DNA of 54,311 nucleotides, counting the filler, from Circinaria calcarea (taxonomy: Eukaryota): NCBI GenBank assembly GCA_051942165.1. It is 4 parts of 4 records of this genome, joined end to end, with 100 filler letters (N's around TTAATTAATTAA, not from the genome) between each part and the next. Parts side by side here need not be neighbours in the genome. Positions count along the whole stretch, not along the records: positions 27,211 to 40,712 come from JAVECS010000493.1; 3 more parts are not named here. One strand, written 5' to 3'. The notes beneath the pieces are model-generated. The model was not told where the DNA came from, did not search any database, and was given only the letters and a program-made list of their open reading frames with translations. Positions 15,888 through 40,712 of this stretch are shown piece by piece; the first letter of the stretch is position 1; each line of letters starts with the position of its first letter. The translations under genes were made by a program, and so were the position numbers.

Positions 15888-17867
15888 TCACTTTGAATCC
15901 TTCCTCAAGCGCTTAGTTGGGTGTTTGTAGTTTAACGCGAGCTCATCCATTGAAGTCTCAGATTCTGGAAGGTCGGCAGTTGCATTAGAACCTTTATTCA
16001 GCGAGGTTAGAGACTCTTGACTCAGCGTTTCGATCGTATAGGCTTCGTCCAATGAAGCTTCAGTAAAGTTAGAGACCCTTCCAAAGCTTTCATCAACAGC
16101 TAGCCTCCCAACTTGGCTATCATTAGCTCTCTTGTTCGCCCGCGTAATCGCTTCGTCCCTCTGATCCTTCGCCCAGTCTCTCGCATTCCGATACGCAGTC
16201 GCCCCCTGACGGAAGGTATCCACGGTGTCTGTCATAGCAAAGGATCTCAGTTGATTCATGCAATATTCAGGCCGACCTTCGCTATCATTAGCTCTCTTGT
16301 TCGCCCGCGTAATCGCTTCGTCCCTCTGATCCTCCGCCCAGTCTCTCGCGTTCCGGTACGCAGTCGCTCCTTGACGGAATGTTTCTGGATCGCTAGTCAT
16401 AGAATATCCCTTAAGCTGAGTCATGCAATATTCAGATCGATCTTCAGGATTGGTGGGCTGAGTAGGGTGACTGGTGTACAGCTTGAGCTGGCCAGCGCTA
16501 TAGATTGATGTGATGGTATAAGCATTGTTATCGTACACTGGTTCGTTTTCTCCATATAACTGCAGACTGTGCATGCCCCGAGCGCCCAGCGCACCGTCGT
16601 AACAAGCCTGTCGTCTGGCTACTGCATCAGTTCCATTCGGCCCTTTAGCCGCCAGAAAGAAGTTCGGCGCGATAGGAAGATCATCCTGCGTTGAAGGAAT
16701 GATATAGCCGCTTAAATCATCGCGGACTCGTCGGTCGAGCTGCTCTGGGCGCGCGCCGTAGTAAAGGTCCGGTTTAGCCGCTGTAAGCATGTCGTTTGTT
16801 GGAGGTGTAAGGTTTGTAAAGAGAACGTCCCCTTCAACGCATTTATTATCCGTTATCTTGCCTTCAATAGCTGGGATCACCGTCTTGGTTGCTTTATTCT
16901 CTTTGGAAATATGTGCGTCTGCTTCCTGGAATTCTTCAAAATTTTCATTGGAAAACCGTGACGGTGATAGAGAAGGTCGAGGTTGTAATAATATTTCGTT
17001 GATCTCTTTCAAATTATCCGGCTTTGGCAGGACTCGACCATCGGGATACTTGTATCTTTCAGGGTAAATGCCGTTATCAATAAGCTTTTGTTGAAAATTA
17101 CGGCTATAAGGCCCACTGCTCTCGGTTGTTTTGGTATTTGTAGGACTCGTAGTTGATCCGGTAATTAAAGTGGATGCTAAACTCCGTTTTCGACTCCGAG
17201 AATTGGACTGGCTCGAGCTCATTATGTGATTAAGAGGATCGACAGGTGCCGGTAACTGGAGAGCATCAGTTTCAATGCTTGTTGGTAGATATCTCATGAT
17301 ACTTACGCCCTTCAGATCCGAGAGGTCTGGGCCACCGTTTCTAGCAAATCGCTTTATGTCTTTCAAAGTCTCCGACTCACAATGGCCGAGAAATTCGGAG
17401 GCGGACTGAGTAACTCGGCGGTCTTTCTTCAGCTCAGCAAGGAAGTTTCGCGTAACAGGCCGGCGAGCTCGTCGATGCTGCGAACGAGGTTGATTTGAAG
17501 CAGGTTGATTGTTCCTTCGATTCAGCTCTCTTAGCGCGCCTCTAGTCAACCAGGTCTTCGATAGGTTGTCCCAAAACGCTGATGGTGGTTGAGATCCGGT
17601 GGTGGGATGATTGAGCTTCTGCCTCTTCAGTTGAGGTTGCGATGTTCCGTTTAGCTGAAGCGCACACGGCTCCGTACGTTGACGCTTGCGTGGGTTGGAA
17701 AGTGGTAATTCGGGCATATAGCAATCATCTATAACAGGTTCGTGAGGGAGGTTGAGGGCTGGTGGAGAGTAGCGCTTGCATCCTGCACTTGATGGTTGGA
17801 ATTCAAGATTTCGTGCTGGCAGGCCTTGGCATTCGTTCTGAATCACTGTCGCCAGAAAGCCAATCAT
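15888..17867 (-). CDS. Fungal accessory-genome protein (DUF7924-like, possible PD-(D/E)XK nuclease fold) with an in-frame 51-nt intron (17306-17256)
   Basis: Motifs FWDNLSKTWLT, RPSLSPSRFS, AKPDLYYG, IIPST, PNFFLAAKGPNG..VARRQACYDGALGARGMHSL and FRQGATAYRNARDWA. Intron GTAAGT..CTGAT..CAG. The exact domain name is recalled, not verified. Confidence 0.75.
   Translation of the reverse strand: MIGFLATVIQNECQGLPARNLEFQPSSAGCKRYSPPALNLPHEPVIDDCYMPELPLSNPRKRQRTEPCALQLNGTSQPQLKRQKLNHPTTGSQPPSAFWDNLSKTWLTRGALRELNRRNNQPASNQPRSQHRRARRPVTRNFLAELKKDRRVTQSASEFLGHCESETLKDIKRFARNGGPDLSDLKGVSIMRYLPTSIETDALQLPAPVDPLNHIMSSSQSNSRSRKRSLASTLITGSTTSPTNTKTTESSGPYSRNFQQKLIDNGIYPERYKYPDGRVLPKPDNLKEINEILLQPRPSLSPSRFSNENFEEFQEADAHISKENKATKTVIPAIEGKITDNKCVEGDVLFTNLTPPTNDMLTAAKPDLYYGARPEQLDRRVRDDLSGYIIPSTQDDLPIAPNFFLAAKGPNGTDAVARRQACYDGALGARGMHSLQLYGENEPVYDNNAYTITSIYSAGQLKLYTSHPTQPTNPEDRSEYCMTQLKGYSMTSDPETFRQGATAYRNARDWAEDQRDEAITRANKRANDSEGRPEYCMNQLRSFAMTDTVDTFRQGATAYRNARDWAKDQRDEAITRANKRANDSQVGRLAVDESFGRVSNFTEASLDEAYTIETLSQESLTSLNKGSNATADLPESETSMDELALNYKHPTKRLRKDSK
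16116..16435. repeat. 165-bp (55-codon) internal tandem duplication in the DUF7924-like gene
   Basis: 16116-16270 and 16281-16435; the protein repeats EYCMxQL..FRQGATAYRNARDWAxDQRDEAITRANKRANDS. Confidence 0.92.
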
Positions 17868-17949
17868 ATGTCGGAGCGTTGCCGGCGGTTAGGGCTAGAC
17901 TCATGCCTCTGGTTTGATCTTCAATTTCATCCCGACGTGCCCTCAACTA

Positions 17950-27210: not shown

Positions 27211-27222
27211 TAAAGGAATTAT

Positions 27223-27352
27223 TTACCCGGGGGTGAGAAAAGGTTTAATTTTCTCACCCCCGGGTAAGTTTTTTCAGTTTCTCACCCCCGGGTAAGTTTT
27301 CTCGATTTCTCACCCCCGGGTAAGTTTTTTCAGTTTCTTACCCCCGGGTAAT
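27223..27352. repeat. 28-bp tandem repeats (TTTCTCACCCCCGGGTAAGTTTT...) x4 plus one inverted copy; likely DNA-transposon subterminal repeats
   Basis: Direct units at 27250, 27278, 27306 and 27334; inverted copy TTACCCGGGGGTGAGAAA at 27223-27240. Confidence 0.8.
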
Positions 27353-27928
27353 TTATTATATATTCTAATTCATTAAGTAGGATAATCGCGAGCTGAATGG
27401 CGGGTCGCATTCTATTATTAAAATTATAATTTCTAATAATAATTTGATGCTGAAATTAATATTATATATCATTTTTCTTTTCCGGTAGATTCTCGGGTTA
27501 TTATATTAAATTATTCGGTTTAATATCTAATTTTTTAAATTTATATATAATTTGAAAATTGAATTCTAAAAAGAACTCAGTTCATTTTATTTGACGGCGG
27601 TTTAATTATTTTATAATTATAAAATATTTAAGATTTTTATAATTTATAATTATTTTAATCGGGTTTTTAATAAGTATTTTTATTAATTCCGGGTATTATT
27701 TTTTAAAGGCGCGGATAATTATTAATAATTTTTTATTATAAATCTCGTAATTATATTCCTGGGGTAATATTTTCTTTAATATAAAAGCAACTGAGTGTAA
27801 TATTTCTTTTTTATTTTTCTATAAAAATATTATTATTACCACGTAGTCCGAAGCGTTAGACTCGATTTATATTTTTTTATTAAAATTAAAATATATAAGA
27901 ATAAGCGCCGTGGTGAAAACTAGTTTTA
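27353..27928. other. Very AT-rich, TpA-rich relic (heavily RIP-mutated repeat)
   Basis: Abrupt AT enrichment, abundant TA, few CA/TG, with surviving CCGG/CGCG islands. Confidence 0.75.
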
Positions 27929-28101
27929 TGTCACGGTTTTAGCGTCACGTGTCACGGGTTAACATAACACCGACCCGCTTCGCGGGCCGGGTCGCGGCCG
28001 AGATCAGGTGACCCACAATGTATTTAGCTTCTGCAGTGTGGGGATTCCATCCCCACACTTAAATCATAGTAAATACTGGAACCCACGTTCAGTCCCTGAC
28101 A
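27929..28101 (+). repeat. LTR1 (173 bp)
   Basis: TGTCACGG...CCCTGACA; differs from LTR2 at 4 positions. Confidence 0.95.
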
Positions 28102-28103
28102 TA

Positions 28104-28113
28104 ATTTAAGTGT
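28104..28113 (+). promoter_or_regulatory. Primer-binding site complementary to the element's own LTR (self-priming type)
   Basis: ATTTAAGTGT is the reverse complement of ACACTTAAAT at 28055-28064. No TGG tRNA-type PBS is present. Confidence 0.75.
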
Positions 28114-28310
28114 CGCATCTTAATACAGCAGTGAGATTCCTGCTGACTACGTTGCTGAGACTAGCTACCGCCGAAAGAGAGCGTGCTACGAAGACAGACC
28201 AGACTCACGCCTGCCGAAAGAGAGCGGCGTGTTACACAAGACGCGAAGTTGACACTACTGCAGTGTCACCATCAGGCAAACTGGCTAAAGAGAGTAAGCC
28301 AGGAAGGACC

Positions 28311-29888
28311 ATGGTGTCGGGACCCAGTACTGCAGCCAGATTACAGGGTTCCATCGAGGAAGACACTCAAGGCACTATGATGGATGATCGCCAGCACCCC
28401 GCAGTCGAGGATGAACTCTACGACTCAGACCGAGAAATACCCCCTTCAGACACAGACAAGGGTAAAGGGAAAACCAAAAAGCAGCCACGGAGACGGTATA
28501 CTATCGACGTGGAAGATGACGGTGATATGATCATACTGGCAGACGAACACGCTCAGAAAGTTTTAGCTAAGGTCGATACACCAGAAGAATTCGTGAATAA
28601 TGCGCAACAACACCCAGAAGTATGGTGTCAAGGCATTAAGGACCTAGTTCGAAGTATCGTGCACATCCGCGAAGGTCATCACAATCTTTCGCAACAAAAT
28701 CAACAACTTGGCTTAGACATTGGGCATGAGAAAAGCGCTAGAAGGAAAGATATTGCAGTCCTTAAGCTCGCCCAGAAAGAGGTTGGACAACTCCAACTTG
28801 ATAATGAAAGAATCCGTAAGCTGCGTGATCGTTGGCGGACTCAAGCTGAAGAAACAGAGAAAAAGAAAGAAGAAATCTATGGAGAATTGGTGCTGATGAG
28901 AGCTCTCTATGGTCCACTCCGGAATGATCTTGATGAACCAATTGATTCAGATGACGAGCAACATCGCCGTGACTTTCCTATAAGCCGGCACACCCCAGCC
29001 ACTACCACGACTTCTGGTAAAGAAGGTCACAATAAGAAATATCCTGATGTGGCGAACTTCCGTGGCGAGGATGATAGGGAAGAATGGGAGCAATGGAGAA
29101 TGCACCTTGAAACGAAATTTCGACAGAGTTCAGTTCTCTTTGGCAGTGAACAGGATAAGATTGATTATATCCGTGATCATTGTAAAGGAACTGCGTTTAA
29201 TGTGATTAAAGCGCGGGCCAACCCCAAGTACGACAATGCTTACAGGACAGCTGAAGAGGCAATACAAGATTTGGAAAACATGTTTGGAGAATACGACAAG
29301 GTAGCAAAGGCTGACGCTCGCCTACATGATGCTAAGTTCCCGATGGGTGCCGTTAACAAGAACGAATCCTTCGACGAATTCCTTGCACGATTTACCTCCA
29401 CCGTCACGTTATTGGAACTTACAGACCTTCAGGTTATGTCGAATCTGAAGCGTTGCCTGAGTCCTCGCATTCAGTATAAGGTATTGGACGGCACTACGTA
29501 CCTGGACTCGAACCAGCTTATCAAACGCTGTAGACAATGCGATTTGGACTTCCAACAGACAGATAGTCTTAGTGCCAAACGAGGAAACAAGACCACCAGT
29601 AACGCCGCGAAAGGCACACCGAACACGAGCACTACCACAAGTGCCGCAGATGCCAATCAGCGTACCACAAAACCCAAACGGAGACACCCACAGCATGTGA
29701 TGGACAAGCTGTTCAAGGAAAACCGATGCTTCAAATGCTTGAAGGTCGGACACCAGGCTAAAGATAAAGATGCTCCCTGTAAAGGAGAGGCCTACCCGAC
29801 TGCTGAACAGGTCGCGGTCCAGTTAAAAGCGATCGGGGTCGAGGTGGACTACCCTGCCGAACTCGAAGGCAGTTCGGAAAACAAGTAG
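28311..29888 (+). CDS. gag: Gag, copy A (525 aa from first ATG)
   Basis: Coiled coil, capsid-like YPDVANFRG..WEQWRMHLETKF and C-terminal knuckle CFKCLKVGH..C. Confidence 0.9.
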   Translation: MVSGPSTAARLQGSIEEDTQGTMMDDRQHPAVEDELYDSDREIPPSDTDKGKGKTKKQPRRRYTIDVEDDGDMIILADEHAQKVLAKVDTPEEFVNNAQQHPEVWCQGIKDLVRSIVHIREGHHNLSQQNQQLGLDIGHEKSARRKDIAVLKLAQKEVGQLQLDNERIRKLRDRWRTQAEETEKKKEEIYGELVLMRALYGPLRNDLDEPIDSDDEQHRRDFPISRHTPATTTTSGKEGHNKKYPDVANFRGEDDREEWEQWRMHLETKFRQSSVLFGSEQDKIDYIRDHCKGTAFNVIKARANPKYDNAYRTAEEAIQDLENMFGEYDKVAKADARLHDAKFPMGAVNKNESFDEFLARFTSTVTLLELTDLQVMSNLKRCLSPRIQYKVLDGTTYLDSNQLIKRCRQCDLDFQQTDSLSAKRGNKTTSNAAKGTPNTSTTTSAADANQRTTKPKRRHPQHVMDKLFKENRCFKCLKVGHQAKDKDAPCKGEAYPTAEQVAVQLKAIGVEVDYPAELEGSSENK

Positions 29889-29915
29889 TCCCTGGCGATA
29901 GTCGCCACCAGGGAC
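29876..29915 (+). promoter_or_regulatory. -1 programmed ribosomal frameshift signal, copy A
   Basis: G_GAA_AAC (29876-82), 5-nt spacer, then hairpin GTCCCT-GGCGA-TAG-TCGCC-ACC-AGGGAC. The -1 frame is open into pol. Confidence 0.82.
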
Positions 29916-32900
29916 AATTGGAAACCCAATTGCGCAGAAGAATACAAGAGTTAGAAGCCACAATTGTTGCTTCCTGCGCCACCGTTAGTGTGTCATCTTG
30001 CTGCGTGGATACAGAACCATCTTTGCAGGATGGTAGACAATTTGACTTCGACTCGACCATACGTACACCGGACGGGAGCTACGTAAGGGCCAGCAGTCTC
30101 ACGGACACTGGGGCCTCGGCCGCAGGCTTCATCAACTTGACATTTGTGAGGAAGCACCAGATCCCACTAACGAAGCTGGCCAAACCGATCAACCTCCGGT
30201 TAGCAGACGACAAGCTCGCCCCCCAGATCACGCATATGGCCCAAGTAGCCTTTAAACTTGGAGGCCATACAGACGAGCTATGGTGCTTGGTAACAACGTT
30301 AGGGAAGTTCGACCTGATTCTCGGGATGCCATGGCTTGAGCAGCATGAGCCTCGAGTCCGTTTTCGAGAAAGGTCCCTGACTTTCAGCTCCGACCACTGT
30401 ATGTCCAACTGTCTGCTCCATAGCAGACCGGTGACAGTGTACAGTAAAAGTGGACCTCGGGCAGAGAAGCCAGGGGTAACACCCGGGAGAACTCAGCATG
30501 ACATCGCTGAAGTCTCCGCGTATGCGTTGTTGAAGCTCGCTGAGAGGAAAGAAAATCAAATAATCGCAATGTGGCCCAAGCAGTTTGAACAGTTGGACCG
30601 CCCTGAAACAGAAGATTTAGTGGGGTCGACCAGTGCCTTTACCACCGACGTTGCTGCCATCTCAGCAGACGATTATGACAAATTCTTCAGCAAAATGAGA
30701 AAACCCCCAGTAACAAGGACCCAGTTGAAAGAACTGGTACCACCGGACTACCACGAGTTTCTAGATGTATGGAACCCGGTGGAAGCCAACAAGCTGCCGC
30801 CGCACAGGTCGGTGGACCATAGAATTGATTTAAAAGAAGGTTCCAACCCAGTCGCGAAGAAAGCCTACGGGCTATCAAGGGACCAAGCAGCAGTGGTGAA
30901 AGGGTACATCGATGAGATGTTAGGGAAAGGATACATTAGACCCAGCACCTCCCCTTACGCTGCCCCGGTCTTAATAGTTAGGAAGCCAGATGGAGGATTG
31001 CGTGTATGCGTGGACTATAGGGCCCTGAATGCCCTGACGGTCAAGAACCGCAATGCACCACCGTTGATTAGGGAAACATTGTCCCGGTTATGCTCTGCCA
31101 GGATTTACAACAAATTCGACATTATTGCTGCCTTCAATGAAATTCGAATCAAAGAAGGGGACGAACAGAAAACAGCATTTCTCACGAGGTACGGGCTGTT
31201 TGAATATGTCGTGATGCCTTTTGGACTATGCAATGCGCCGGGTACTTTCCAGGCGTTTATTAACGAGACGTTAAGAGAATACCTTGACATCTTCTGCACC
31301 GCCTATGTCGATGATATCCTGATATATAGTGGTTCACCGGCGGAGCATACTACTCACGTGAAGAAAATCCTCCAGGCACTCCAGAGAGCGGGTTTGTATC
31401 TTGATATTAGGAAATGCGAGTTCAATGTCACTCAAGTCAAGTACTTGGGGTTGATCATCACGACAGAAGGCCTCAAGATGGACCCAAAGAAGGTAGAGAC
31501 GGTACAGCAATGGCAGACCCCAAGATGCATTAAGGATGTACAGGCATTCCTAGGCTTCGCGAACTTCTACCGAAGATTCGTGGCCGCCTATTCCAAGATT
31601 GCAGCACCACTTACTGCACTGACGAAGGGAAATCAGAAGGATTTTGCCTTCCCATGGGCAGAGGGAAGCCCAGAACAGAGAGCCTTCCAAGCCTTGAAGG
31701 GTGCTTTCACCACGGCCCCGATCCTTGTGCACTTCAACCCTGATAAGGAGGCATGGGTCGAGTCCGACGCTTCTGATTATGTGGTGGCAGCAGTGCTCTC
31801 GCAGAAAGATGAGAAAGGAGTGTTACGACCAGTCGCCTTCATGTCAAAGAAGATGTCACCCCAGGAATGCAACTACGAGATCTACGACAAAGAGTTGTTG
31901 GCCATTATTCGTGCTTTTGAAGAATGGCACCCTGAGTTGGCGGGGACCCCTGTGGAGGACCCAATCAAAGTGATTACTGATCACAAAAACCTAGAGTACT
32001 TCATGACTACGAAGCAACTAAACCGCCGCCAAGCACGATGGGCGGAATTCCTGTCCGAATTCAACTTCCGGATAACATACAGACCAGGGAGATTAGGCAT
32101 GAAGCCTGATAGCCTGACTCGGCGGCCTGGAGACCTGCCAGAAGAAAACGATGATGCCCGACATCAGTTCCAGCATCAGACCGTTATTAGGGATTACAAC
32201 CTCAGTAACGGAATGCGACCAGCTATCCAGCTTGCAACCATTATACTCGACGAGTTCGAGTGCACGGCGACCTACTTGGCTGCACTAATTTATGACCTTA
32301 GTGAAGGGGGTTCCGGGGAAGAGGAGCAACTAGAGGAATCGACCCCGCGAACCCCTGAGGTAGGGCCACCTGTAGAGGAGTCAATAGAAGAATCTACAGG
32401 CGACCCCCCTACTACTGGGCCAGAGATTATGGAGCAAGTACGAGCTGCGTACGAGGACGATGATACTGTTCAGAGGATCATGCAGGCTAAGGAAGCTGGA
32501 AAGAGGAAAATCCCGTTTGATATCGCCCATAAAGAACATATTAAACTTGAGCTGGGCGAGTGCACAATACATGATGGTCTTCTCTACGTAGGAGAGAGGC
32601 TATACGTACCACAGACCGAGGATCAGACCCTACGAACCAAAGTGCTAAAGGAGGTGCATGAATCACCCCCGGGAGGGCATGCAGGCCGGACTTCGACATA
32701 TGACAGACTGAGCCGGTACTACTACTGGCCACGCATGACAGACTCAGTGGCAAGGTATGTTAAGAGCTGTCATACCTGCAAGAGGTCGAAGAGCTACAGA
32801 GAAGGCAAGCAAGGCTTGCTTAAACCCCTGCCTATCCCAGAGAGATACTGGACAGATATTTCAGTGGACTTTATCACCCCCTTACCGTACTGCCACAGGT

Positions 32901-34066
32901 ACGGAAGGAACTATCAGCATATTATGGTAGTGGTTGACAGGCTGTCAAAGAAAAAGAAGTTTATACCACTCGACTCTCTGGAGGTAGAGGCAGTGGTGCA
33001 AGCGTTCGTGGAATGGGTCTGGAGAGAGGAGGGATACCCGAAAACAGTGGTTTCGGACAGAGGGACCCAGTTCACATCGCACTTCTGGGACCGACTATGT
33101 AAGAGAATTGGTACTAAGCCAAAGATGTCGACATCCTTCCACCCCGAAACAGACGGACAGACAGAAAGCGCGAATGCTGCATTAAAACAGTACTTACGCG
33201 CCTACGTCAATTACGACCAAGACAACTGGGTAGATTTCCTACCGATCGCTGAATTCGAGGCCAATTCAGACAGGAACGACTCCACAGGGATAGCCCCATT
33301 CCTCGCCACAAAAGGGTACCTACCACGTTCAGGAACAGAACCACCGGGCCCGTGGGACGAAGAACTAACCGCCCCAGCACGAACAGAACTGAAGGCGGCA
33401 GATGGGTTCATTAAGAAGATAGAAGACATCAGAACCTATTTAAGAGAACAACTGAAATGGGCACAGGCTCTGCAATCAGAGCAAGCAAATCGGAATCGCC
33501 AAGCTGCCCCGGAGTTCCGAGAGGGAGACATGGTAATGCTGGACGCGCGTAATATTAAAACGATGCGTCCAACTAAATCACTGGATCATAAGAATCTGGG
33601 TCCTTTCAAGATAGTGAGAGTAATCAATAACATGGCTTATGAATTAGAACTGCCCGATTCGATGAAAGGATTATTCCCTGTCTTCCACCCATGGCTGTTA
33701 CACTTGGACAATAGCGACCCTTTGCCAGGACAGACGGAACCGCCTCCACCTCCGGTTACAGTGGACACGGACACCGAAACCGGAGAGTACTACGCAGAGG
33801 AAATCCTGGACGCAAAGATGGATAAAAGACGGAAAGACCCGGTGACAGGCGAAAAGGGATGCTTAATGTATAAGATTAGGTACTCGGGCTATGACACCTA
33901 CAACACGATACCAGGATGGCAAGTATGGACAGACGCCGCAGGATCACCGGATCTAATAGCAGACTTCCACCACAAGCATGGAGGCAGGAAACCGGGGCCC
34001 CACGAGAGCTTCAGGACGCCGGAAGGATGGGCCCCCTTATTGGGCATGCTAATCAGCTCGACTTAG
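29876..34066 (+). CDS. pol: Pol, copy A (protease, RT, RNase H, integrase, chromodomain), expressed as a Gag-Pol fusion
   Basis: LTDTGAS; LRVCVDYRALN, MPFGLCNAP, YVDD; ESDASD, TDHKNL; HHCC and DDE (VDFI, SDRG, QTE); GPF; EYYAEEILD..YKIRYSGY chromodomain. Confidence 0.96.
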   Translation, partial: GKQVVPGDSRHQGQLETQLRRRIQELEATIVASCATVSVSSCCVDTEPSLQDGRQFDFDSTIRTPDGSYVRASSLTDTGASAAGFINLTFVRKHQIPLTKLAKPINLRLADDKLAPQITHMAQVAFKLGGHTDELWCLVTTLGKFDLILGMPWLEQHEPRVRFRERSLTFSSDHCMSNCLLHSRPVTVYSKSGPRAEKPGVTPGRTQHDIAEVSAYALLKLAERKENQIIAMWPKQFEQLDRPETEDLVGSTSAFTTDVAAISADDYDKFFSKMRKPPVTRTQLKELVPPDYHEFLDVWNPVEANKLPPHRSVDHRIDLKEGSNPVAKKAYGLSRDQAAVVKGYIDEMLGKGYIRPSTSPYAAPVLIVRKPDGGLRVCVDYRALNALTVKNRNAPPLIRETLSRLCSARIYNKFDIIAAFNEIRIKEGDEQKTAFLTRYGLFEYVVMPFGLCNAPGTFQAFINETLREYLDIFCTAYVDDILIYSGSPAEHTTHVKKILQALQRAGLYLDIRKCEFNVTQVKYLGLIITTEGLKMDPKKVETVQQWQTPRCIKDVQAFLGFANFYRRFVAAYSKIAAPLTALTKGNQKDFAFPWAEGSPEQRAFQALKGAFTTAPILVHFNPDKEAWVESDASDYVVAAVLSQKDEKGVLRPVAFMSKKMSPQECNYEIYDKELLAIIRAFEEWHPELAGTPVEDPIKVITDHKNLEYFMTTKQLNRRQARWAEFLSEFNFRITYRPGRLGMKPDSLTRRPGDLPEENDDARHQFQHQTVIRDYNLSNGMRPAIQLATIILDEFECTATYLAALIYDLSEGGSGEEEQLEESTPRTPEVGPPVEESIEESTGDPPTTGPEIMEQVRAAYEDDDTVQRIMQAKEAGKRKIPFDIAHKEHIKLELGECTIHDGLLYVGERLYVPQTEDQTLRTKVLKEVHESPPGGHAGRTSTYDRLSRYYYWPRMTDSVARYVKSCHTCKRSKSYREGKQGLLKPLPIPERYWTDISVDFITPLPYCHRYGRNYQHIMVVVDRLSKKKKFIPLDSLEVEAVVQAFVEWVWREEGYPKTVVSDRGTQFTSHFWDRLCKRIGTKPKMSTSFHPETDGQTESANAALKQYLRAYVNYDQDNWVDFLPIAEFEANSDRNDSTGIAPFLATKGYLPRSGTEPPGPWDEELTAPARTELKAADGFIKKIEDIRTYLREQLKWAQALQSEQANRNRQAAPEFREGDMVMLDARNIKTMRPTKSLDHKNLGPFKIVRVINNMAYELELPDSMKGLFPVFHPWLLHLDNSDPLPGQTEPPPPPVTVDTDTETGEYYAEEILDAKMDKRRKDPVTGEKGCLMYKIRYSGYDTYNTIPGWQVWTDAAGSPDLIADFHHKHGGRKPGPHESFRTPEGWAPLLGMLISST

Positions 34067-34284
34067 GGCTGACTAATGGAAGCTTAGGATCCTGGACATG
34101 TGTCGATATACCGAATCAAGGTGGTGCTCTTCTAGTCAATAGAATCACTACTGAACGACTGAGGAGGTTGACTCGTATGCCTGCACAGCACGCCTTTGCT
34201 TACCAGTTAGATCAGCACCGAAGCAGCTGTATTACACCCAGAAGATAGGGGGGACTACAAGAGACGTCGCCGGAGCTCGTGTTT

Positions 34285-34295
34285 AGAGGGGGGGG
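34285..34295 (+). promoter_or_regulatory. Polypurine tract, copy A
   Basis: AGAGGGGGGGG followed by TAA and the LTR2 start. Confidence 0.9.
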
Positions 34296-34298
34296 TAA

Positions 34299-34471
34299 TG
34301 TCACGGTTTTAGCGTCACGTGTCACGGGTTAACATAACACCGACCCGCTTCGCGGGCCGGGTCAGGGCCGAGATCAGGTGACCCACAATGTATTTAGCTT
34401 CTGCAGTGTGGGGATTCCATCCCCACACTTAAATCATAGTAAATACTGGAACCCAACTTCAGTCCCTGACA
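34299..34471 (+). repeat. LTR2 (173 bp), shared: 3' LTR of A and 5' LTR of B
   Basis: Preceded by the PPT of A and followed by the PBS and leader of B. Confidence 0.95.
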
Positions 34472-34680
34472 TAATTTAAGTGTCGCATCTAATACAGCAG
34501 TGAGATTCCTGCTGACTACGTTGCTAGGACTAGCTACTGCCGAAAGAGAGCGTGCTACAGAAACAGACCAGACTCACGCCTGCCGAAAGAGAGCGGCGTG
34601 TTACACAGAACGCGATCGTTGGCACTACTGCAGTGTCACCATCTAGCAAACTGGCTAAAGAAAGCAAGCCAGTAGGGACC

Positions 34681-36255
34681 ATGGTGTCGGGACCTAGTAC
34701 TGCAGCCAGATTGCAGGGTTCCATCGAGGAAGACACTCAGGACACTATGATGGATGATCGCCAGAACCCCGCAGTCGAGGATGAACTCTACGACTCAGAC
34801 CGAGAAATACCCCCTCCAGACACAGAGAAGGGTAAAGGGAGAACTAAGAAGCAGCCACGGAGACGGTACACTATCGACGTGGAGGATGACGGTGATATGA
34901 TCGTACTGGCAGACGAACACGCTCAGCGAGTTTTTGCTAAGGTCGATACACCAGAAGAATTCGTGAACAATGCGCAACAACACCCAGAAGTATGGTGTCA
35001 AGGCATTAAGGACCTAGTTCGAAGTATCGTGCACATCCGCGAAGGTCATCACGATCTGTCGCAACAAAATCAACAACTTGGCTTAGACATTGCGCATGAG
35101 AAAAGCGCTAGAAGGAAAGATTGTGCAGCCCTGAAGCTCGCCCAAAAAGAGGTTGGACAACTCCAACTTGACAATGAAAGAATCCGTAAACTGCGTGATC
35201 GTTGGCGTACACAAGCCGAAGAGACGGAAAAGAAGAGAATCGAACTCCATGGAGAGTTAGTGCTAATGCGAGCACTTCATGGGCAGCGCCGGAATGATCC
35301 TGAGTCGCCAGTCGACTCAGACGACGAGCAACATCGTCGTAACACCCCTATGAATCGACAGACCCCTGTCACCAATGCGACTTCGGGCACAGAAGGCCAC
35401 AACAAGAAATACCCCGATGTGCCTAACTTCCGCGGTGAAGATGATAGAGATGAATGGGAGCAATGGAGGATGCATCTCGAAACAAAATTCCGTCAAAGCT
35501 CAGTACTCTTCGGCAGTGAACAAGATAAGATTGATTACATTCGTGATCATTGTAAGGGGACTGCGTTTAACGTAATCAAGGCGCGAGCAAACCCCAAATA
35601 CGACCATGCCTACACGACAGCTGAAGAAGCCATACAAGATCTTGAGAATATGTTCGGAGAATATGATAAGGTGGCAAAAGCAGATGCTCGTTTACACGAC
35701 GTGAAGTTCCCCATGGGAATAATTAATAAGAATGAATCCTTTGATGAATTCCTCGCTCGATTCACCTCCACCGTCACTTTATTGGAACTCACCGATCTCC
35801 AGGTGATGTCGAACCTAAAGCGCTGTTTGAGTCCTCGCATTCAGTACAAGGTGCTGGATGGCACCACATATGCGAGTTCGAACCAACTTATCAAACGCTG
35901 CAGACAGTGCGATTTGGACTTTCAACAAACAGACAGTCTTGGTGCTAAACGGGGAAATAAGACGTCCAATAACGCAACAGCGAAGAATGTACCCAATACC
36001 AACACGAGCACCACTGATGTCAATCAGCGTTCAGCGAAACCTCGAAGACGATACCCCCAACATGTGATGGATAAACTGTTCAAAGAAAATCGATGCTTCA
36101 AATGTTTGAAGGCCGGACATCAGGCTAAAGATAAGGATGCTCCCTGTAAAGGAGACGCCTTTCTGACTTCCGAGCAAGTCGCTGTTCAGCTGAAAGCTAT
36201 TGGGGTTGAAGTAAACGACCCAGCCGAACTTGAAGGCAGTTCGGAAAACAAGTAG
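34681..36255 (+). CDS. gag: Gag, copy B (524 aa from first ATG)
   Basis: Colinear with Gag A; intact. Confidence 0.9.
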   Translation: MVSGPSTAARLQGSIEEDTQDTMMDDRQNPAVEDELYDSDREIPPPDTEKGKGRTKKQPRRRYTIDVEDDGDMIVLADEHAQRVFAKVDTPEEFVNNAQQHPEVWCQGIKDLVRSIVHIREGHHDLSQQNQQLGLDIAHEKSARRKDCAALKLAQKEVGQLQLDNERIRKLRDRWRTQAEETEKKRIELHGELVLMRALHGQRRNDPESPVDSDDEQHRRNTPMNRQTPVTNATSGTEGHNKKYPDVPNFRGEDDRDEWEQWRMHLETKFRQSSVLFGSEQDKIDYIRDHCKGTAFNVIKARANPKYDHAYTTAEEAIQDLENMFGEYDKVAKADARLHDVKFPMGIINKNESFDEFLARFTSTVTLLELTDLQVMSNLKRCLSPRIQYKVLDGTTYASSNQLIKRCRQCDLDFQQTDSLGAKRGNKTSNNATAKNVPNTNTSTTDVNQRSAKPRRRYPQHVMDKLFKENRCFKCLKAGHQAKDKDAPCKGDAFLTSEQVAVQLKAIGVEVNDPAELEGSSENK

Positions 36256-36282
36256 TCCCTGGCGATAGTCGCCCCCAGGGAC
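36243..36282 (+). promoter_or_regulatory. -1 frameshift signal, copy B
   Basis: G_GAA_AAC at 36243-49 and the same hairpin at 36255-82; the single change from A lies in the bulge. Confidence 0.82.
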
Positions 36283-39200
36283 AATTGGAGGACCAATTGC
36301 GCAGAAGAATACAGGAGCTGGAAGCTACAGTCAGTGCTTCCTGCGCTACTGTCAGTGTGTCGTCTTGTTGTGTGGATACAGAACCATCTTTACAGGAGGG
36401 TAGACAATTCGACTTCGATTCAATGATCCGAACACCCAATGGCAGCTACGTGAGCGCCTCCAGTCTCACGGACACAGGAGCGTCTGCTGCGGGCTTCATT
36501 GACGCGGTGTTTGTTAAGAAACAGAGGATCCCAACAGTGAAGCTAACCAAGCCTATTAACCTCCGGCTGGCAGACGATAAACTCGCCCCACAGATCACGC
36601 ACATGGCCCAAGTAACCTTTAAGCTCGGTGACCACGCAGACGAGCTATGGTGCTTGGTAACAACGTTGGGGAAGTTTGACCTGATTCTGGGAATGCCATG
36701 GCTTGAGCAACATGAGCCCCGCGTCCGCTTCAAAGAGAGATCTCTGACATTCAACTCAAACCATTGCATGTCCAGCTGTCTGCCTAACAGCAGGCCAGTG
36801 ATAGTGTACAGTAAGAGTGGGCCTCGCACAGAGAAGCCAGGGGGCATACAGCAGAGGGACCAGCATGATATCGCTGAAGTCTCCGCCTACGCTTTGTTGA
36901 AGCTTGCGGAGAAGAAAGACAACCAATTGATTGCGATGTGGCCCAAGCATTTTGAGCAGTTGGCTCGCCCGGAGACAGAGGATGTGTTAATGTTGACCAG
37001 TGCGTTTACCACTAAGGTCGCCGCCATCTCCGCCGACGACTATGACAAATTTTTCAGCAAAATGAAGAAAACTCCAGTGACTCGAACCTAGCTGGAAAAA
37101 CTAGTACCATAGGACTACCATGAATTCTTGGATGTGTGGAACCTAGTGGAAGCTAATAAGCTCCCCCCGCACAGGTCGGTGGACCATAGGATAGACTTGA
37201 AAGAGGGCTCACACCCAGTGGCCAAGAAGGCCTATGGCTTGTCTAGGGACCAAGCAGCAGTAGTGAAAGGGTACATTGATGAGATGTTAGGGAAAGGATA
37301 CATTAGACCCAGCACGTCTCCTTACGCTGCCCCAGTCTTGATAGTCAAGAAGCCAGACGGAGGACTGCGGGTATGCGTTGACTACAGGGCCCTGAATGCC
37401 CTAACAGTCAAGAACCGCAACGCACCACCGCTGATACGGGAAACACTGTCCCGGTTATGTTCTGCCAGAATCTACAGCAAATTCGACATCATCGCCGCCT
37501 TCAATGAGATTCGAATTAAAGAAGGAGACGAGCAGAAAACCGCATTCCTCACGCGGTACGGGCTGTTCGAATACGTGGTGATGCCTTTCGGACTGTGCAA
37601 TGCGCCGGGTACTTTCCAGGCGTTCATCAATGAGACGCTGAGGGAATATCTTGACATCTTCTGTACTGCCTACGTTGATGATATCCTAATCTATAGTGAC
37701 TCACAGGCAGACCATACCAATCATGTAAAGAAGATTCTTCGAGCACTTCAGAAAGCTGGTTTGTACCTCGATATCAAGAAATGCGAGTTCAACGTTACTC
37801 AAGTCAAGTACCTGGGGTTGATCATTACCACCGATGGACTTAAGATGGACCCTAAGAAGGTCGAAACGGTACAGCAGTGGCAGACACCGAGATGCATTAA
37901 AGACGTACAGGCATTTCTCGGTTTCGCGAACTTCTATCGAAGGTTTGTCGCTGCGTACTCGAAGATAGCGGCACCGCTCACAGCACTCACGAGAGGCAAC
38001 CAGAAAGATTTCGCCTTTCCCTGGGCAGAGGGGAGTGCCGAACAAGCTGCTTTCCAGACATTGAAATTGGCCTTCACCACGGCGCCGGTCCTTATGCACT
38101 TCAACCCTGATAAAGAGGCATGGATCGAGTCCGACGCTTCGGACTACGTGGTGGCGGCAGTACTCTCGCAGAAGGACGAGAAAGGAGTATTACGACCAGT
38201 TGCCTTCATGTCAAAGAAGATGTCACCCCAGGAATGCAATTACGAGATTTACGACAAGGAACTACTGGCAATCATCCGCGCTTTTGAAGAATGGCATCCG
38301 GAGTTAGCGGGGACACCTGTTGAGGACCCAATCAAGGTGGTCACGGATCATAAGAACCTTGAATACTTCATGACTACAAAACAGCTGAACCGCCGTCAAG
38401 CAAGATGGGCGGAATTCCTCTCGGAGTTCAATTTCCGAATCACATACAGACCTGGAAGATTAGGCACCAAGCCGGATAGCCTAACACGACGACCTGGGGA
38501 CCTACCGGAAGCGAAGGACGACATGCGACGTCAGTTTCAGCACCAGACCATTATCAGAGACTATAACCTTAGTAATGGAATGCGACCCGCTATTCAGCTC
38601 GCGACGATCCTGCTCGACGAGTTAGAGTACACGACGAACTACTTAACTGCATTGATTTATGACCTTAGTGAAGGGGGTTCCGGAGGTGAGGAGCAACTAG
38701 AAGAATCATCTTCGCGAACCCCTGAGGGAAGGTCGTCTGTGGAGGAGCCATTAGAAGAATCCATAGATGACCCACCTACTACTGGGCCAGAGATCATGGA
38801 GCAAGTACGAGCCGCGTATGATAACGACGAGACCGTTCAACGGATCATGCACGCTAAACAAGCTGGAGAAAGAAAGATACCTTTCGATATTGCTCACAAG
38901 GAACATGTGAAGCTCGAGTTAGGAGAATGCACGATACACGAGGGACTTCTTTATGTAGGGGAACGGCTGTATGTACCACAGGATGAAGACCAGACTTTAC
39001 GAACACAAGTCTTGAAGGAAATTCACGAATCACCACCGGGCGGGCATGCAGGCCGAACCTCGACATATGATAGACTAAGCCGGCATTACTACTGGCCACG
39101 CATGACAGACTCGGTGGCTCGATACGTCAAGAGCTGTCACACCTGCAAAAGATCGAAGAGTTACAAGGAGGGCAAACAAGGACTGCTTAAACCCCTGCCA

Positions 39201-40433
39201 ATCCCAGACCGATATTGGACGGATATCTCAGTGGACTTTATCACCCCACTACCATACTGTCACCGGTACGGAAGGAACTATCAGCACATTATGGTAGTAG
39301 TGGATAGACTGTCTAAAAAGAAAAAGTTCGCACCACTAGACTCTCTCGAGGTGGAAGCAGTGGTACAAGCCTTTGTGGAATGGGTCTGGAGGGAAGAGGG
39401 ATACCCAAAGACGGTGGTCTCGGACAGAGGAACACAATTCACCTCACACTTCTGGCAACGGTTATGCAAGAGAATTGGTACTAAGCCAAAGATGTCGACA
39501 TCCTTCCACCCTGAGACAGACGGACAGACAGAAAGCGCCAACGCTGCACTGAAGCAATACTTACGCGCCTATGTCAACTATGACCAGGATAATTGGGTAG
39601 ACTTCTTGCCAATCGCGGAATTCGAGGCCAACTCAGACAGAAACGACTCCACCGGAATAGCCCCGTTCCTCGCTACAAAAGGTTACCTGCCGCGCTCAGG
39701 GACAGAGCCACCGACCCCTTGGGATAAAGAAGTAACCGCCCCAGCACGGACGGAGCTGAAGGCGGCAGATGGGTTTATCAAGAAGATAGAGGACATCAGA
39801 ACTTATCTGAGAGAACAGCTGAAATGGGCACAGGCTCTACAGTCAGAGCAAGCAAACCGGAAGCGCCAAGCTGCCCCGGAGTTCCGAGAAGGAGACATGG
39901 TGATGCTTGACGCGCGCAATATCAAAACGATGCGCCCGACAAAGTCACTGGACCATAAAAACCTGGGTCCTTTCAAGATAATAAAAGCAATCAATAACAT
40001 GGCTTACGAATTGGAACTGCCGGAGTCGATGAAAGGATTATTCCCTGTCTTTCACCCATGGCTACTACACTTGGACAATAGCGACCCTTTGCCAGGACAG
40101 ACAGAGCCGCCTCCACCTCCAGTTGCAGTGGATACGGACACCGAAACCGGAGAGTACTACGCAGAGGAAATCCTAGATGCAAAGATAGATAAGAGACGGA
40201 AAGACCCTGTGACGGGCGAAAAAGGTTGCTTGATGTATAAGATTAGGTACTCAGGCTACGACAACTACAACACGATACCAGAATGGCAGGTGTGGACAGA
40301 CGCCGCAGGGTCACCGGATCTGATAGCAGATTTCCACCATAAACATGGAGACACGAAGCCGGGGCCCCACGAGAGCTTCAAGACGCCAGAAGGATGGATC
40401 CCTTTATTGGACATGCTAATCAGCTCGACCTAG
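36243..40433 (+). pseudogene. pol: Pol, copy B, with in-frame TAG at 37089 and 37110
   Basis: ORFs 36285-37091 and 37128-40433 are in the same frame and both align to Pol A. Confidence 0.9.
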
Positions 40434-40665
40434 GGCTGACTGATGGAAGCTTAGGATCCTGGACATGTGTCGATATACTGAATCAAGGCGGTGCTCTTCT
40501 AGTCAATAGAATCACTGCTGAACGACTGAGGAGGTTGACTCGTATGCCTGCACAGCACGCCTTCGCTTACCAGAAAGATCAGCACCGAAGCAGCTGTATT
40601 ACACCCAGAAGAGAGGGGGGACTACAAGAGACGTCGCCGGAGCTCGTGTTTAGAGGGGGGGGTAA

Positions 40666-40712
40666 TGTCACGGTTTTAGCGTCACGTGTCACGGGTTAAC
40701 ATAACACCGACC
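40666..40712 (+). repeat. LTR3, first 47 bp (truncated by the gap), preceded by PPT at 40652-40662
   Basis: Identical to the first 47 bp of LTR1 and LTR2. Confidence 0.93.

Follow-up and report, generated by a model that had tools for sequence, protein, structure and literature searches.

A probable head-to-tail tandem of two diverged Ty3/gypsy retrotransposons sharing a single LTR in an assembly contig of Circinaria calcarea

Can two retrotransposons with long-diverged coding regions come to lie head-to-tail on one fungal chromosome with a single long terminal repeat (LTR) between them, or is such an arrangement a product of genome assembly? The question is raised by a 54,311-nucleotide stretch of the Circinaria calcarea assembly GCA_051942165.1 (here called the window), which consists of four contigs of ~13.5 kb separated by spacers of N's. 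The third of these contigs (G000:C493, JAVECS010000493.1, 13,502 bp, window positions 27211-40712) carries two LTR retrotransposons, referred to here as A and B. The source assembly is fragmented (31.5 Mb in 5512 contigs). The arrangement on C493 is confirmed as assembled sequence, whereas its existence as a tandem on the chromosome is only probable.

The contig holds, in direct order on the plus strand and with no host DNA at the centre, LTR1, A, LTR2, B, and the beginning of LTR3. LTR1 (27929..28101) is 173 bp long, has TG...CA termini, and is directly preceded by TTTTA (27924..27928), a candidate left copy of a 5-bp target duplication. It is followed by the predicted primer-binding site (PBS) of A, of the self-priming type (28104..28113), and the interior of A closes with a polypurine tract at 34285..34295. 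LTR2 (34299..34471) serves as both the 3' LTR of A and the 5' LTR of B; the predicted PBS of B, again of the self-priming type, lies at 34474..34483, and its polypurine tract at 40652..40662 leads to the first 47 bp of LTR3 (40666..40712), where the contig ends. The LTR starts at 27929, 34299, and 40666 give unit lengths of 6370 and 6367 bp. The original prediction, made from the sequence, that LTR2 stands between the polypurine tract of A and the PBS of B with no other DNA was borne out, as were its counts for the repeats themselves: LTR1 and LTR2 differ at 4 of 173 positions (66, 67, 158, and 159, i.e., two dinucleotides) and are otherwise identical (97.7%), and the 47 visible bases of LTR3 are the same as those of LTR1 and LTR2. 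LTR3 is cut before the first diagnostic base, and its allele type is therefore not readable. The set of bases found in LTR2 at all four sites is the common one, present in 7 of 13 other LTR copies, and the set in LTR1 is rare, occurring in none of the 13, with one old solo LTR carrying two of its four bases. Only one copy of each interior, A and B, turned up in the assembly.

Two young solo LTRs of the A/B family (G000:C2463:491-663 and G000:C982:8442-8614), ~97% identical to LTR2, each have a clean 5-bp target duplication. The 173-bp LTR opens with a near-duplication of ~20 bp of its own terminus (27929-27948), and several older solo LTRs (among L001-L014) are ~153 bp long and start at the inner TG. 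Another copy of the A/B family is represented by a 3' LTR and polypurine tract (G000:C4119:1670-1896, L006) decayed by repeat-induced point mutation (RIP) and with a flank of its own.

A and B are 84.96% identical over 6422 aligned columns. Their Pol proteins share 91.1% amino-acid identity, with a synonymous divergence (dS) of 0.96 and a nonsynonymous divergence (dN) of 0.049, and their Gag proteins share 88.3%, with a dS of 0.78, which agrees with the earlier claims that the interiors differ at many synonymous sites and that the array is not a simple duplication of one element. Since a dS of ~1 is combined with a dN of 0.049 under purifying selection, both lineages were long selected as active elements, which argues against a duplication that decayed in place. 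The divergence is uneven, with both ends of the interiors ~95% identical. Differences at fourfold-degenerate sites number 4 of 66 up to position ~28835 versus 281 of 654 downstream (matched in 0 of 1000 permutations), and a second break, less well supported, falls near 33335 (16 of 1000 permutations). Of 210 leader columns, 18 carry a difference, as do 8 of 232 in the 3' untranslated region (UTR). The segment that appears recently common to the two lineages thus comprises the leader and the first ~175 gag codons (28102..28835, plus strand). The N terminus of Gag is identical between A and B at 138 of 150 positions, whereas their closest relative matches at 67 of 147 positions there and at 81 of 90 in the core, and across 12 aligned Gag relatives the N terminus is among the least conserved parts of the protein. 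A region that is poorly conserved in general and yet nearly identical in A and B points to recent exchange as the source of the shared ends; constraint at the nucleotide level was considered for the 5' part of gag and rejected on the same comparison with the 12 relatives. We therefore read A and B as mosaics that recently swapped ends, namely, LTRs, leader, 5' gag, and 3' UTR. The 5' segments are 95% identical, short of what a plain copy of the 5' end of B in the upstream unit would show, and the mosaic structure would thus be older than the tandem. The longest run identical between A and B, 117 bp, comprises 52 bases of the 3' UTR and LTR positions 1-65.

By their domain order, TG...CA LTRs, PBS, and polypurine tract, A and B are classed as Ty3/gypsy LTR retrotransposons. 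In A, gag (28311..29888) is open and encodes 525 amino acids, with 13 homologues (best, 58%), and pol (29807..34066) is open in the -1 frame relative to gag and encodes a protease, a reverse transcriptase (RT), RNase H, an integrase, an SH3 region, and a C-terminal chromodomain-like region (~33794-33973). In B, gag is likewise open (34681..36255), and pol (36234..40433) contains two in-frame TAG stops (37089 and 37110) between the protease and the RT; all four genes lie on the plus strand. Pfam domains in the Pol of A are RVP_2 (residues 95-195), RVT_1 (391-551), RT_RNaseH (622-752), Integrase_H2C2 (939-996), and rve (1033-1113), and those of B occur in the same order. The C terminus of A matched Pfam Chromo with an E value of 0.023 and 15 bits, below the cutoff of 25.1, and its best match in PDB was the Swi6 chromodomain (E value, 0.011). 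The region can be aligned with that of relatives, several of which (~70% identity) carry PF00385, and it is likely a diverged chromodomain. A quick tree of 19 rows, which included no named reference chromovirus, placed A and B as sisters (support, 99) within a set of fungal relatives, some of them proteins with PF00385. A putative self-primer complementary to the PBS lies at 28055..28064 in LTR1 and at 34425-34434 in LTR2 (plus strand); the 10-bp pairing appears in the predicted RNA folds of LTR1 and LTR2 with z scores of -2.5 and -3.1, and 4 of 200 and 0 of 200 shuffled sequences, respectively, folded as well as the native one. Priming from their own LTR is accordingly predicted for both elements, and together these features make A and B look like self-priming Ty3/gypsy chromoviruses. 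The overlap of gag and pol contains a short A-run and a hairpin, suggesting a -1 frameshift between them.

The A/B family appears to be unnamed to date: the closest Pol is that of an unnamed relative at 88%, and the best named proteins (Pyrenophora and Periconia) reach 54%. None of 10 exact gag or pol translations was found in a public protein collection, a metagenome scan returned 70 loci with a best match of 58%, and the LTR pattern had no match among viral contigs. Six of the 70 metagenome loci (L123, L124, L125, L128, L131, and L147) contain two or three copies of RT in a span of 13-24 kb and represent clustered or nested gypsy elements.

The left flank of the array points to the target of the insertion. 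An inverted B-type relic (RNase H region; 27348..27926, minus strand; GC content, 21%) is AT rich and decayed by RIP: compared with B it shows 189 differences, of which 177 are G>A or C>T and 12 of other kinds; compared with A, 39 of 209 are of other kinds. The excess of C>T and G>A changes indicative of RIP holds for this left-flank relic only; substitutions between A and B are symmetric and without an excess of TpA, so that they bear no general RIP footprint, and RIP was rejected as the cause of the A/B divergence. The stops of B and three further C/T differences that precede an A base are clustered on one strand in a stretch of 70 bp (37089-37157); the density there, 5 TpA-type differences per 100 bp where the other three tracks peak at 3 to 4, is suggestive of a light RIP-like patch but too weak to call. 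At the left end of C493, in AT-rich DNA beyond the relic, a 45-bp imperfect palindrome occupies 27223-27267. In the lichen fungus Cladonia, an excerpt of PMC12542154 describes young elements nested in RIP-decayed ones.

We consider it probable that C493 represents a real three-LTR heterotandem. This grading and those given below to an assembler mis-join and to mixed genotypes are judgements; a likelihood table with priors of 1:1 and 3:1 proved too tandem-friendly and was not used. One line of support is the way in which the contig ends. Its last 99 bases (40614-40712) are an exact repeat of 34247-34345, and control contig ends held at least 137 LTR bases in 12 of 12 cases in one family and in 16 of 16 in another (the latter being those of 60 pattern matches that were located at contig ends); by comparison with these controls, the 99-base overlap points to a local coverage hole at the 3' end of B. 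Because the half of the AT-rich relic that is missing has to lie beyond the last LTR, a tandem predicts that assembly stalls at the end of B, where the stall is observed, whereas two ordinary elements predict a stall at the end of A. If the assembler stepped through word lengths k of 99, 119, and 141, which we take to be the default behaviour of MEGAHIT, then the 119-bp span from the last private base of A to the first diagnostic base of LTR2 would have needed reads or local mates. Contigs with a displaced flank on an LTR of the A/B type were not found among the matches listed: the LTR-end pattern for the right flank gave 12 exact matches, none with the right flank, among the matches listed (100 of 225), and a RIP-tolerant pattern for the continuation of the relic gave a single match, B itself. 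A multicopy control family gave 12 flank contigs (six 5' and six 3'). Further, decay after insertion would predict 1.55-3.1 nonsense changes in A (probability of none, 0.21-0.045), and A is fully open; this openness and the old solo LTR that shares two bases with LTR1 make the LTR1/LTR2 differences look like lineage alleles. The demonstrable recombination between the A and B lineages and the published precedents, as excerpted from PMC11042837 and PMC11899658, also count for the tandem.

Several observations weigh against it. The join is known from the assembly, for which a search listed no sequencing run. Overlaps of 141 bases are seen between contig ends (C547/C775 and C1940/C1307), and many contigs end ~141 bases into an LTR, indicating a de Bruijn assembler whose longest word was 141; as the 173-bp LTR is longer than this, the phase from LTR2 into B could not be fixed by the graph if that LTR type occurs twice. 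The alleles of LTR2 are the commonest (7 of 13), and A could therefore own such a 3' LTR as a separate element. On C547, two ~90%-identical elements of a second gypsy family are joined head-to-head through a 60-bp LTR end (G000:C547:1-5072, L073), and the flank verified by its target duplication is left on C4085 with a 140-base overlap, with empty sites on C3611, C1841, and C700. The head-to-head join is a probable mis-join or mixture of alleles, and the conflict means that the assembly can cross an LTR along an unverified path. (A real inverted heterodimer at one target site was considered for C547 and dropped, because the verified flank attaches directly to one element.) The control flanks, six on each side, give 2 exact target-site pairs, or 3 when one mismatch is allowed; missing flanks are thus common, and the absence of a displaced flank for A or B is weak evidence. 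A linked repeat of 85% identity shows no general RIP footprint, although RIP has been at work here. Finally, the prior odds strongly favour separate elements, tandems being a small minority of LTR loci.

These points bear above all on an assembler mis-join, in which A and B would be separate single-copy insertions, the graph having kept A as the way into, and B as the way out of, the shared LTR or the 117-bp run and having dropped the true flanks. We hold this to be unlikely but a rival to be reckoned with, for it draws on the k=141 signature with a 173-bp LTR, on the fragmentation of the assembly, on the one true link (B to its 3' LTR) that was certainly dropped, on the comparable doubtful join in C547, and on the loss of about half of the control flanks. 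It would, however, require that three loci lose links instead of one, and either a chimeric link from A to LTR2 or an A with discordant LTRs; it predicts the stall at the end of A, beside the AT-rich relic, and not at the end of B, where it is seen; and the displaced flank at C547 is visible as a contig, whereas none was found for A and B among the matches listed.

A thallus with more than one fungal genotype could also have yielded C493 as a mosaic, with A and B coming from different genotypes or loci. The window's other contigs carry ordinary fungal genes. For the RPN2 protein, matches with 85-87% identity come from Loxospora, Lasallia, Icmadophila, and Xylographa, genera of lichen fungi, so that the host is probably a lichen-forming ascomycete; host proteins closest to those of lichen fungi, the metagenome-derived origin of many named matches, and the conflicting left ends on C547 and C4085, which could reflect mixed alleles, are compatible with this idea. 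An alternative allele contig for the A/B locus was nevertheless not found among the matches listed, and we regard the explanation as improbable. Elsewhere in the window, a 170-bp direct repeat (84%) at 16112-16445 lies within a 666-amino-acid open reading frame (15888-17888, minus strand) with a weak match to DUF7924.

Very improbable, in our estimate, is a double insertion at one site, with four LTRs that later recombined to leave one central LTR, although that grade scores the extra steps only, the explanation being a variant of a real tandem. Such insertion is a known route to tandem dimers (excerpt of PMC5932611), and a target that is itself a relic of the same family suggests clustered targeting; neither a second LTR nor a second target copy has left a trace at the junction, however, and the end product would be indistinguishable from that of the best explanation. 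That one element was duplicated in tandem long ago and its two copies then diverged where they stood, through mutation or RIP, would suit two units equal in length within 3 bp but is scarcely credible given a dN/dS of 0.05 at a dS of ~1, which indicates long independent selection as active elements, symmetric substitutions without TpA excess, and LTRs that are 97.7% identical.

The original prediction had the two subfamilies joined by LTR-LTR recombination, a proposal that fits the anatomy and the Tf1-Tf2 precedent (excerpt of PMC11042837) and that stands only in part, an assembler mis-join being the unlikely but standing objection to it. If the tandem is real, an element may have integrated into the RIP-killed B-type relic, and a complementary DNA (cDNA) or one-LTR circle of the other subfamily would then have recombined by homology into the resident LTR, crossing over within the 117-bp stretch that is identical between both 3' ends, upstream of LTR position 66. 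Alternatively, two cDNAs may have recombined before integration. LTR2 would end the transcript of A and start that of B, and in a reciprocal-crossover version, LTR3 would carry the four rare bases of LTR1, and TTTTA and the remainder of the relic would come after it. That the array continues beyond the contig, as had been suggested, seems unlikely: a looped B would give a well-supported link from B to its LTR, yet that link stalled. The intact gag and cis signals of B held up, and its mobilization by the Pol of A is plausible, but no second B interior was found in the assembly. As B encodes Gag and protease but not RT or integrase, it could presumably move only with an A-type Pol. A wider idea, which we rate as a long shot, is that in RIP-competent lichen fungi, subfamilies with interiors ~15% apart (longest identical run, 117 bp), perhaps shielded from RIP, re-share LTR, leader, and 5' gag and form helper-passenger heterotandems that evade RIP despite their direct linkage and may be copied together as a 12.9-kb unit; as part of this idea, the inverted-U5 copies of the second family, described next, would hint that the host routinely integrates recombinant cDNAs.

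In two elements of the second gypsy family, the 5' LTR is replaced by an inverted U5 (3') end fused to a short forward end, so that both termini are of the U5 type (G000:C547:5006-11167, L073/L074, with C4085, L258; and G000:C775:5680-10686, L075/L076, with C1940, L262). The 5-bp target duplication of the element on C547 is confirmed by empty-site copies of a host repeat; for that on C775, a single end among 59 LTR ends has a matching 5-bp flank (chance, ~6%), and the LTR concerned carries the same sequence variant. These structures suggest that integrase inserted aberrant fold-back cDNAs, and a limited literature search found nothing relevant to inverted-U5 elements. A young multicopy gypsy family (G000:C1734, L078) with open gag and pol has identical LTRs at 12 contig ends, from which we infer a recent burst on which RIP has not yet acted. 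On G000:C1810:3580-5328 (L088), a long degenerate tandem repeat adjoins an old solo LTR.

If real, the tandem on C493 would be a natural example, from a filamentous fungus, of the integrase-independent tandem formation demonstrated by experiment for Tf1 and Tf2, here between partners far more diverged in pol, and it would offer a natural test of the identity that RIP needs in a linked repeat, with a B-type neighbour destroyed and A and B clean. The gain would be incremental, the class of structure being well documented. If the join is instead a mis-join, it is a warning about contigs bridged by an LTR when a fungal genome is assembled from short reads. A narrow search, made in a partial library, found no paper on shared-LTR gypsy tandems in filamentous fungi.

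In the excerpted account of Schizosaccharomyces pombe (PMC11042837), Tf1 cDNA is inserted at resident Tf2 elements through single-strand annealing by Rad52, independently of integrase, mostly as tandems with a single LTR between; this makes up ~4% of insertions even with an intact integrase, and Tf1-Tf2 tandems also occur in wild isolates. A and B resemble that case in being a related self-priming Ty3/gypsy pair with a single separating LTR and in switching type inside the element and within the central LTR. Tf1 and Tf2 are nearly identical in RT and integrase in the same excerpt, whereas the pol genes of A and B differ at about half of their synonymous sites while their ends are shared. With Tf1/sushi and Tcn1 chromoviruses, as characterized in passages of PMC6317226 and PMC7175516, A and B have in common the order protease-RT-RNase H-integrase, a C-terminal chromodomain-like region, and a PBS complementary to the element's own 5' end. 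No named family of this kind is close to A and B, and, unlike the yeast that harbours Tf1 and Tf2, the host here is filamentous and RIP competent; the mechanism is one that we infer.

Ty1 and Ty2 of Saccharomyces cerevisiae are copia-type and tRNA-primed elements. A passage of PMC7175516 describes Ty1/Ty2 hybrids and Ty1', in which subfamilies of one genome swap segments including gag, much as A and B appear to have done, although that passage concerns hybrids and not tandems. In plants, three-LTR tandems are common, according to an excerpt of PMC11899658, which reports 266 candidate tandem LTR retrotransposons in a rice pangenome; like C493, these alternate interiors with shared LTRs; they are gypsy biased and often have one 5-bp target duplication, and the authors state that artefacts are not excludable from short-read assemblies. 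In the rice cases worked through there, interiors are 94-99% identical and the LTRs of TLI1 85-89%, compared with 85% for the interiors and 97.7% for the LTRs of A and B. For three-LTR "complex" elements, part of bioRxiv 10.1101/452573 sets out models of unequal recombination, template switching, and two-cDNA recombination before integration, which the pattern of distances among LTRs separates (summarising Devos 2002 and Sabot & Schulman 2007); unlike in those elements, the body of LTR3 and the right target copy are absent here, so that the pattern cannot be read. On the evidence of these excerpts, single-LTR heterotandems are already a known class, represented by Tf1-Tf2 and by rice, and what sets the C. 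calcarea case apart is the depth of the pol divergence and the RIP-competent host.

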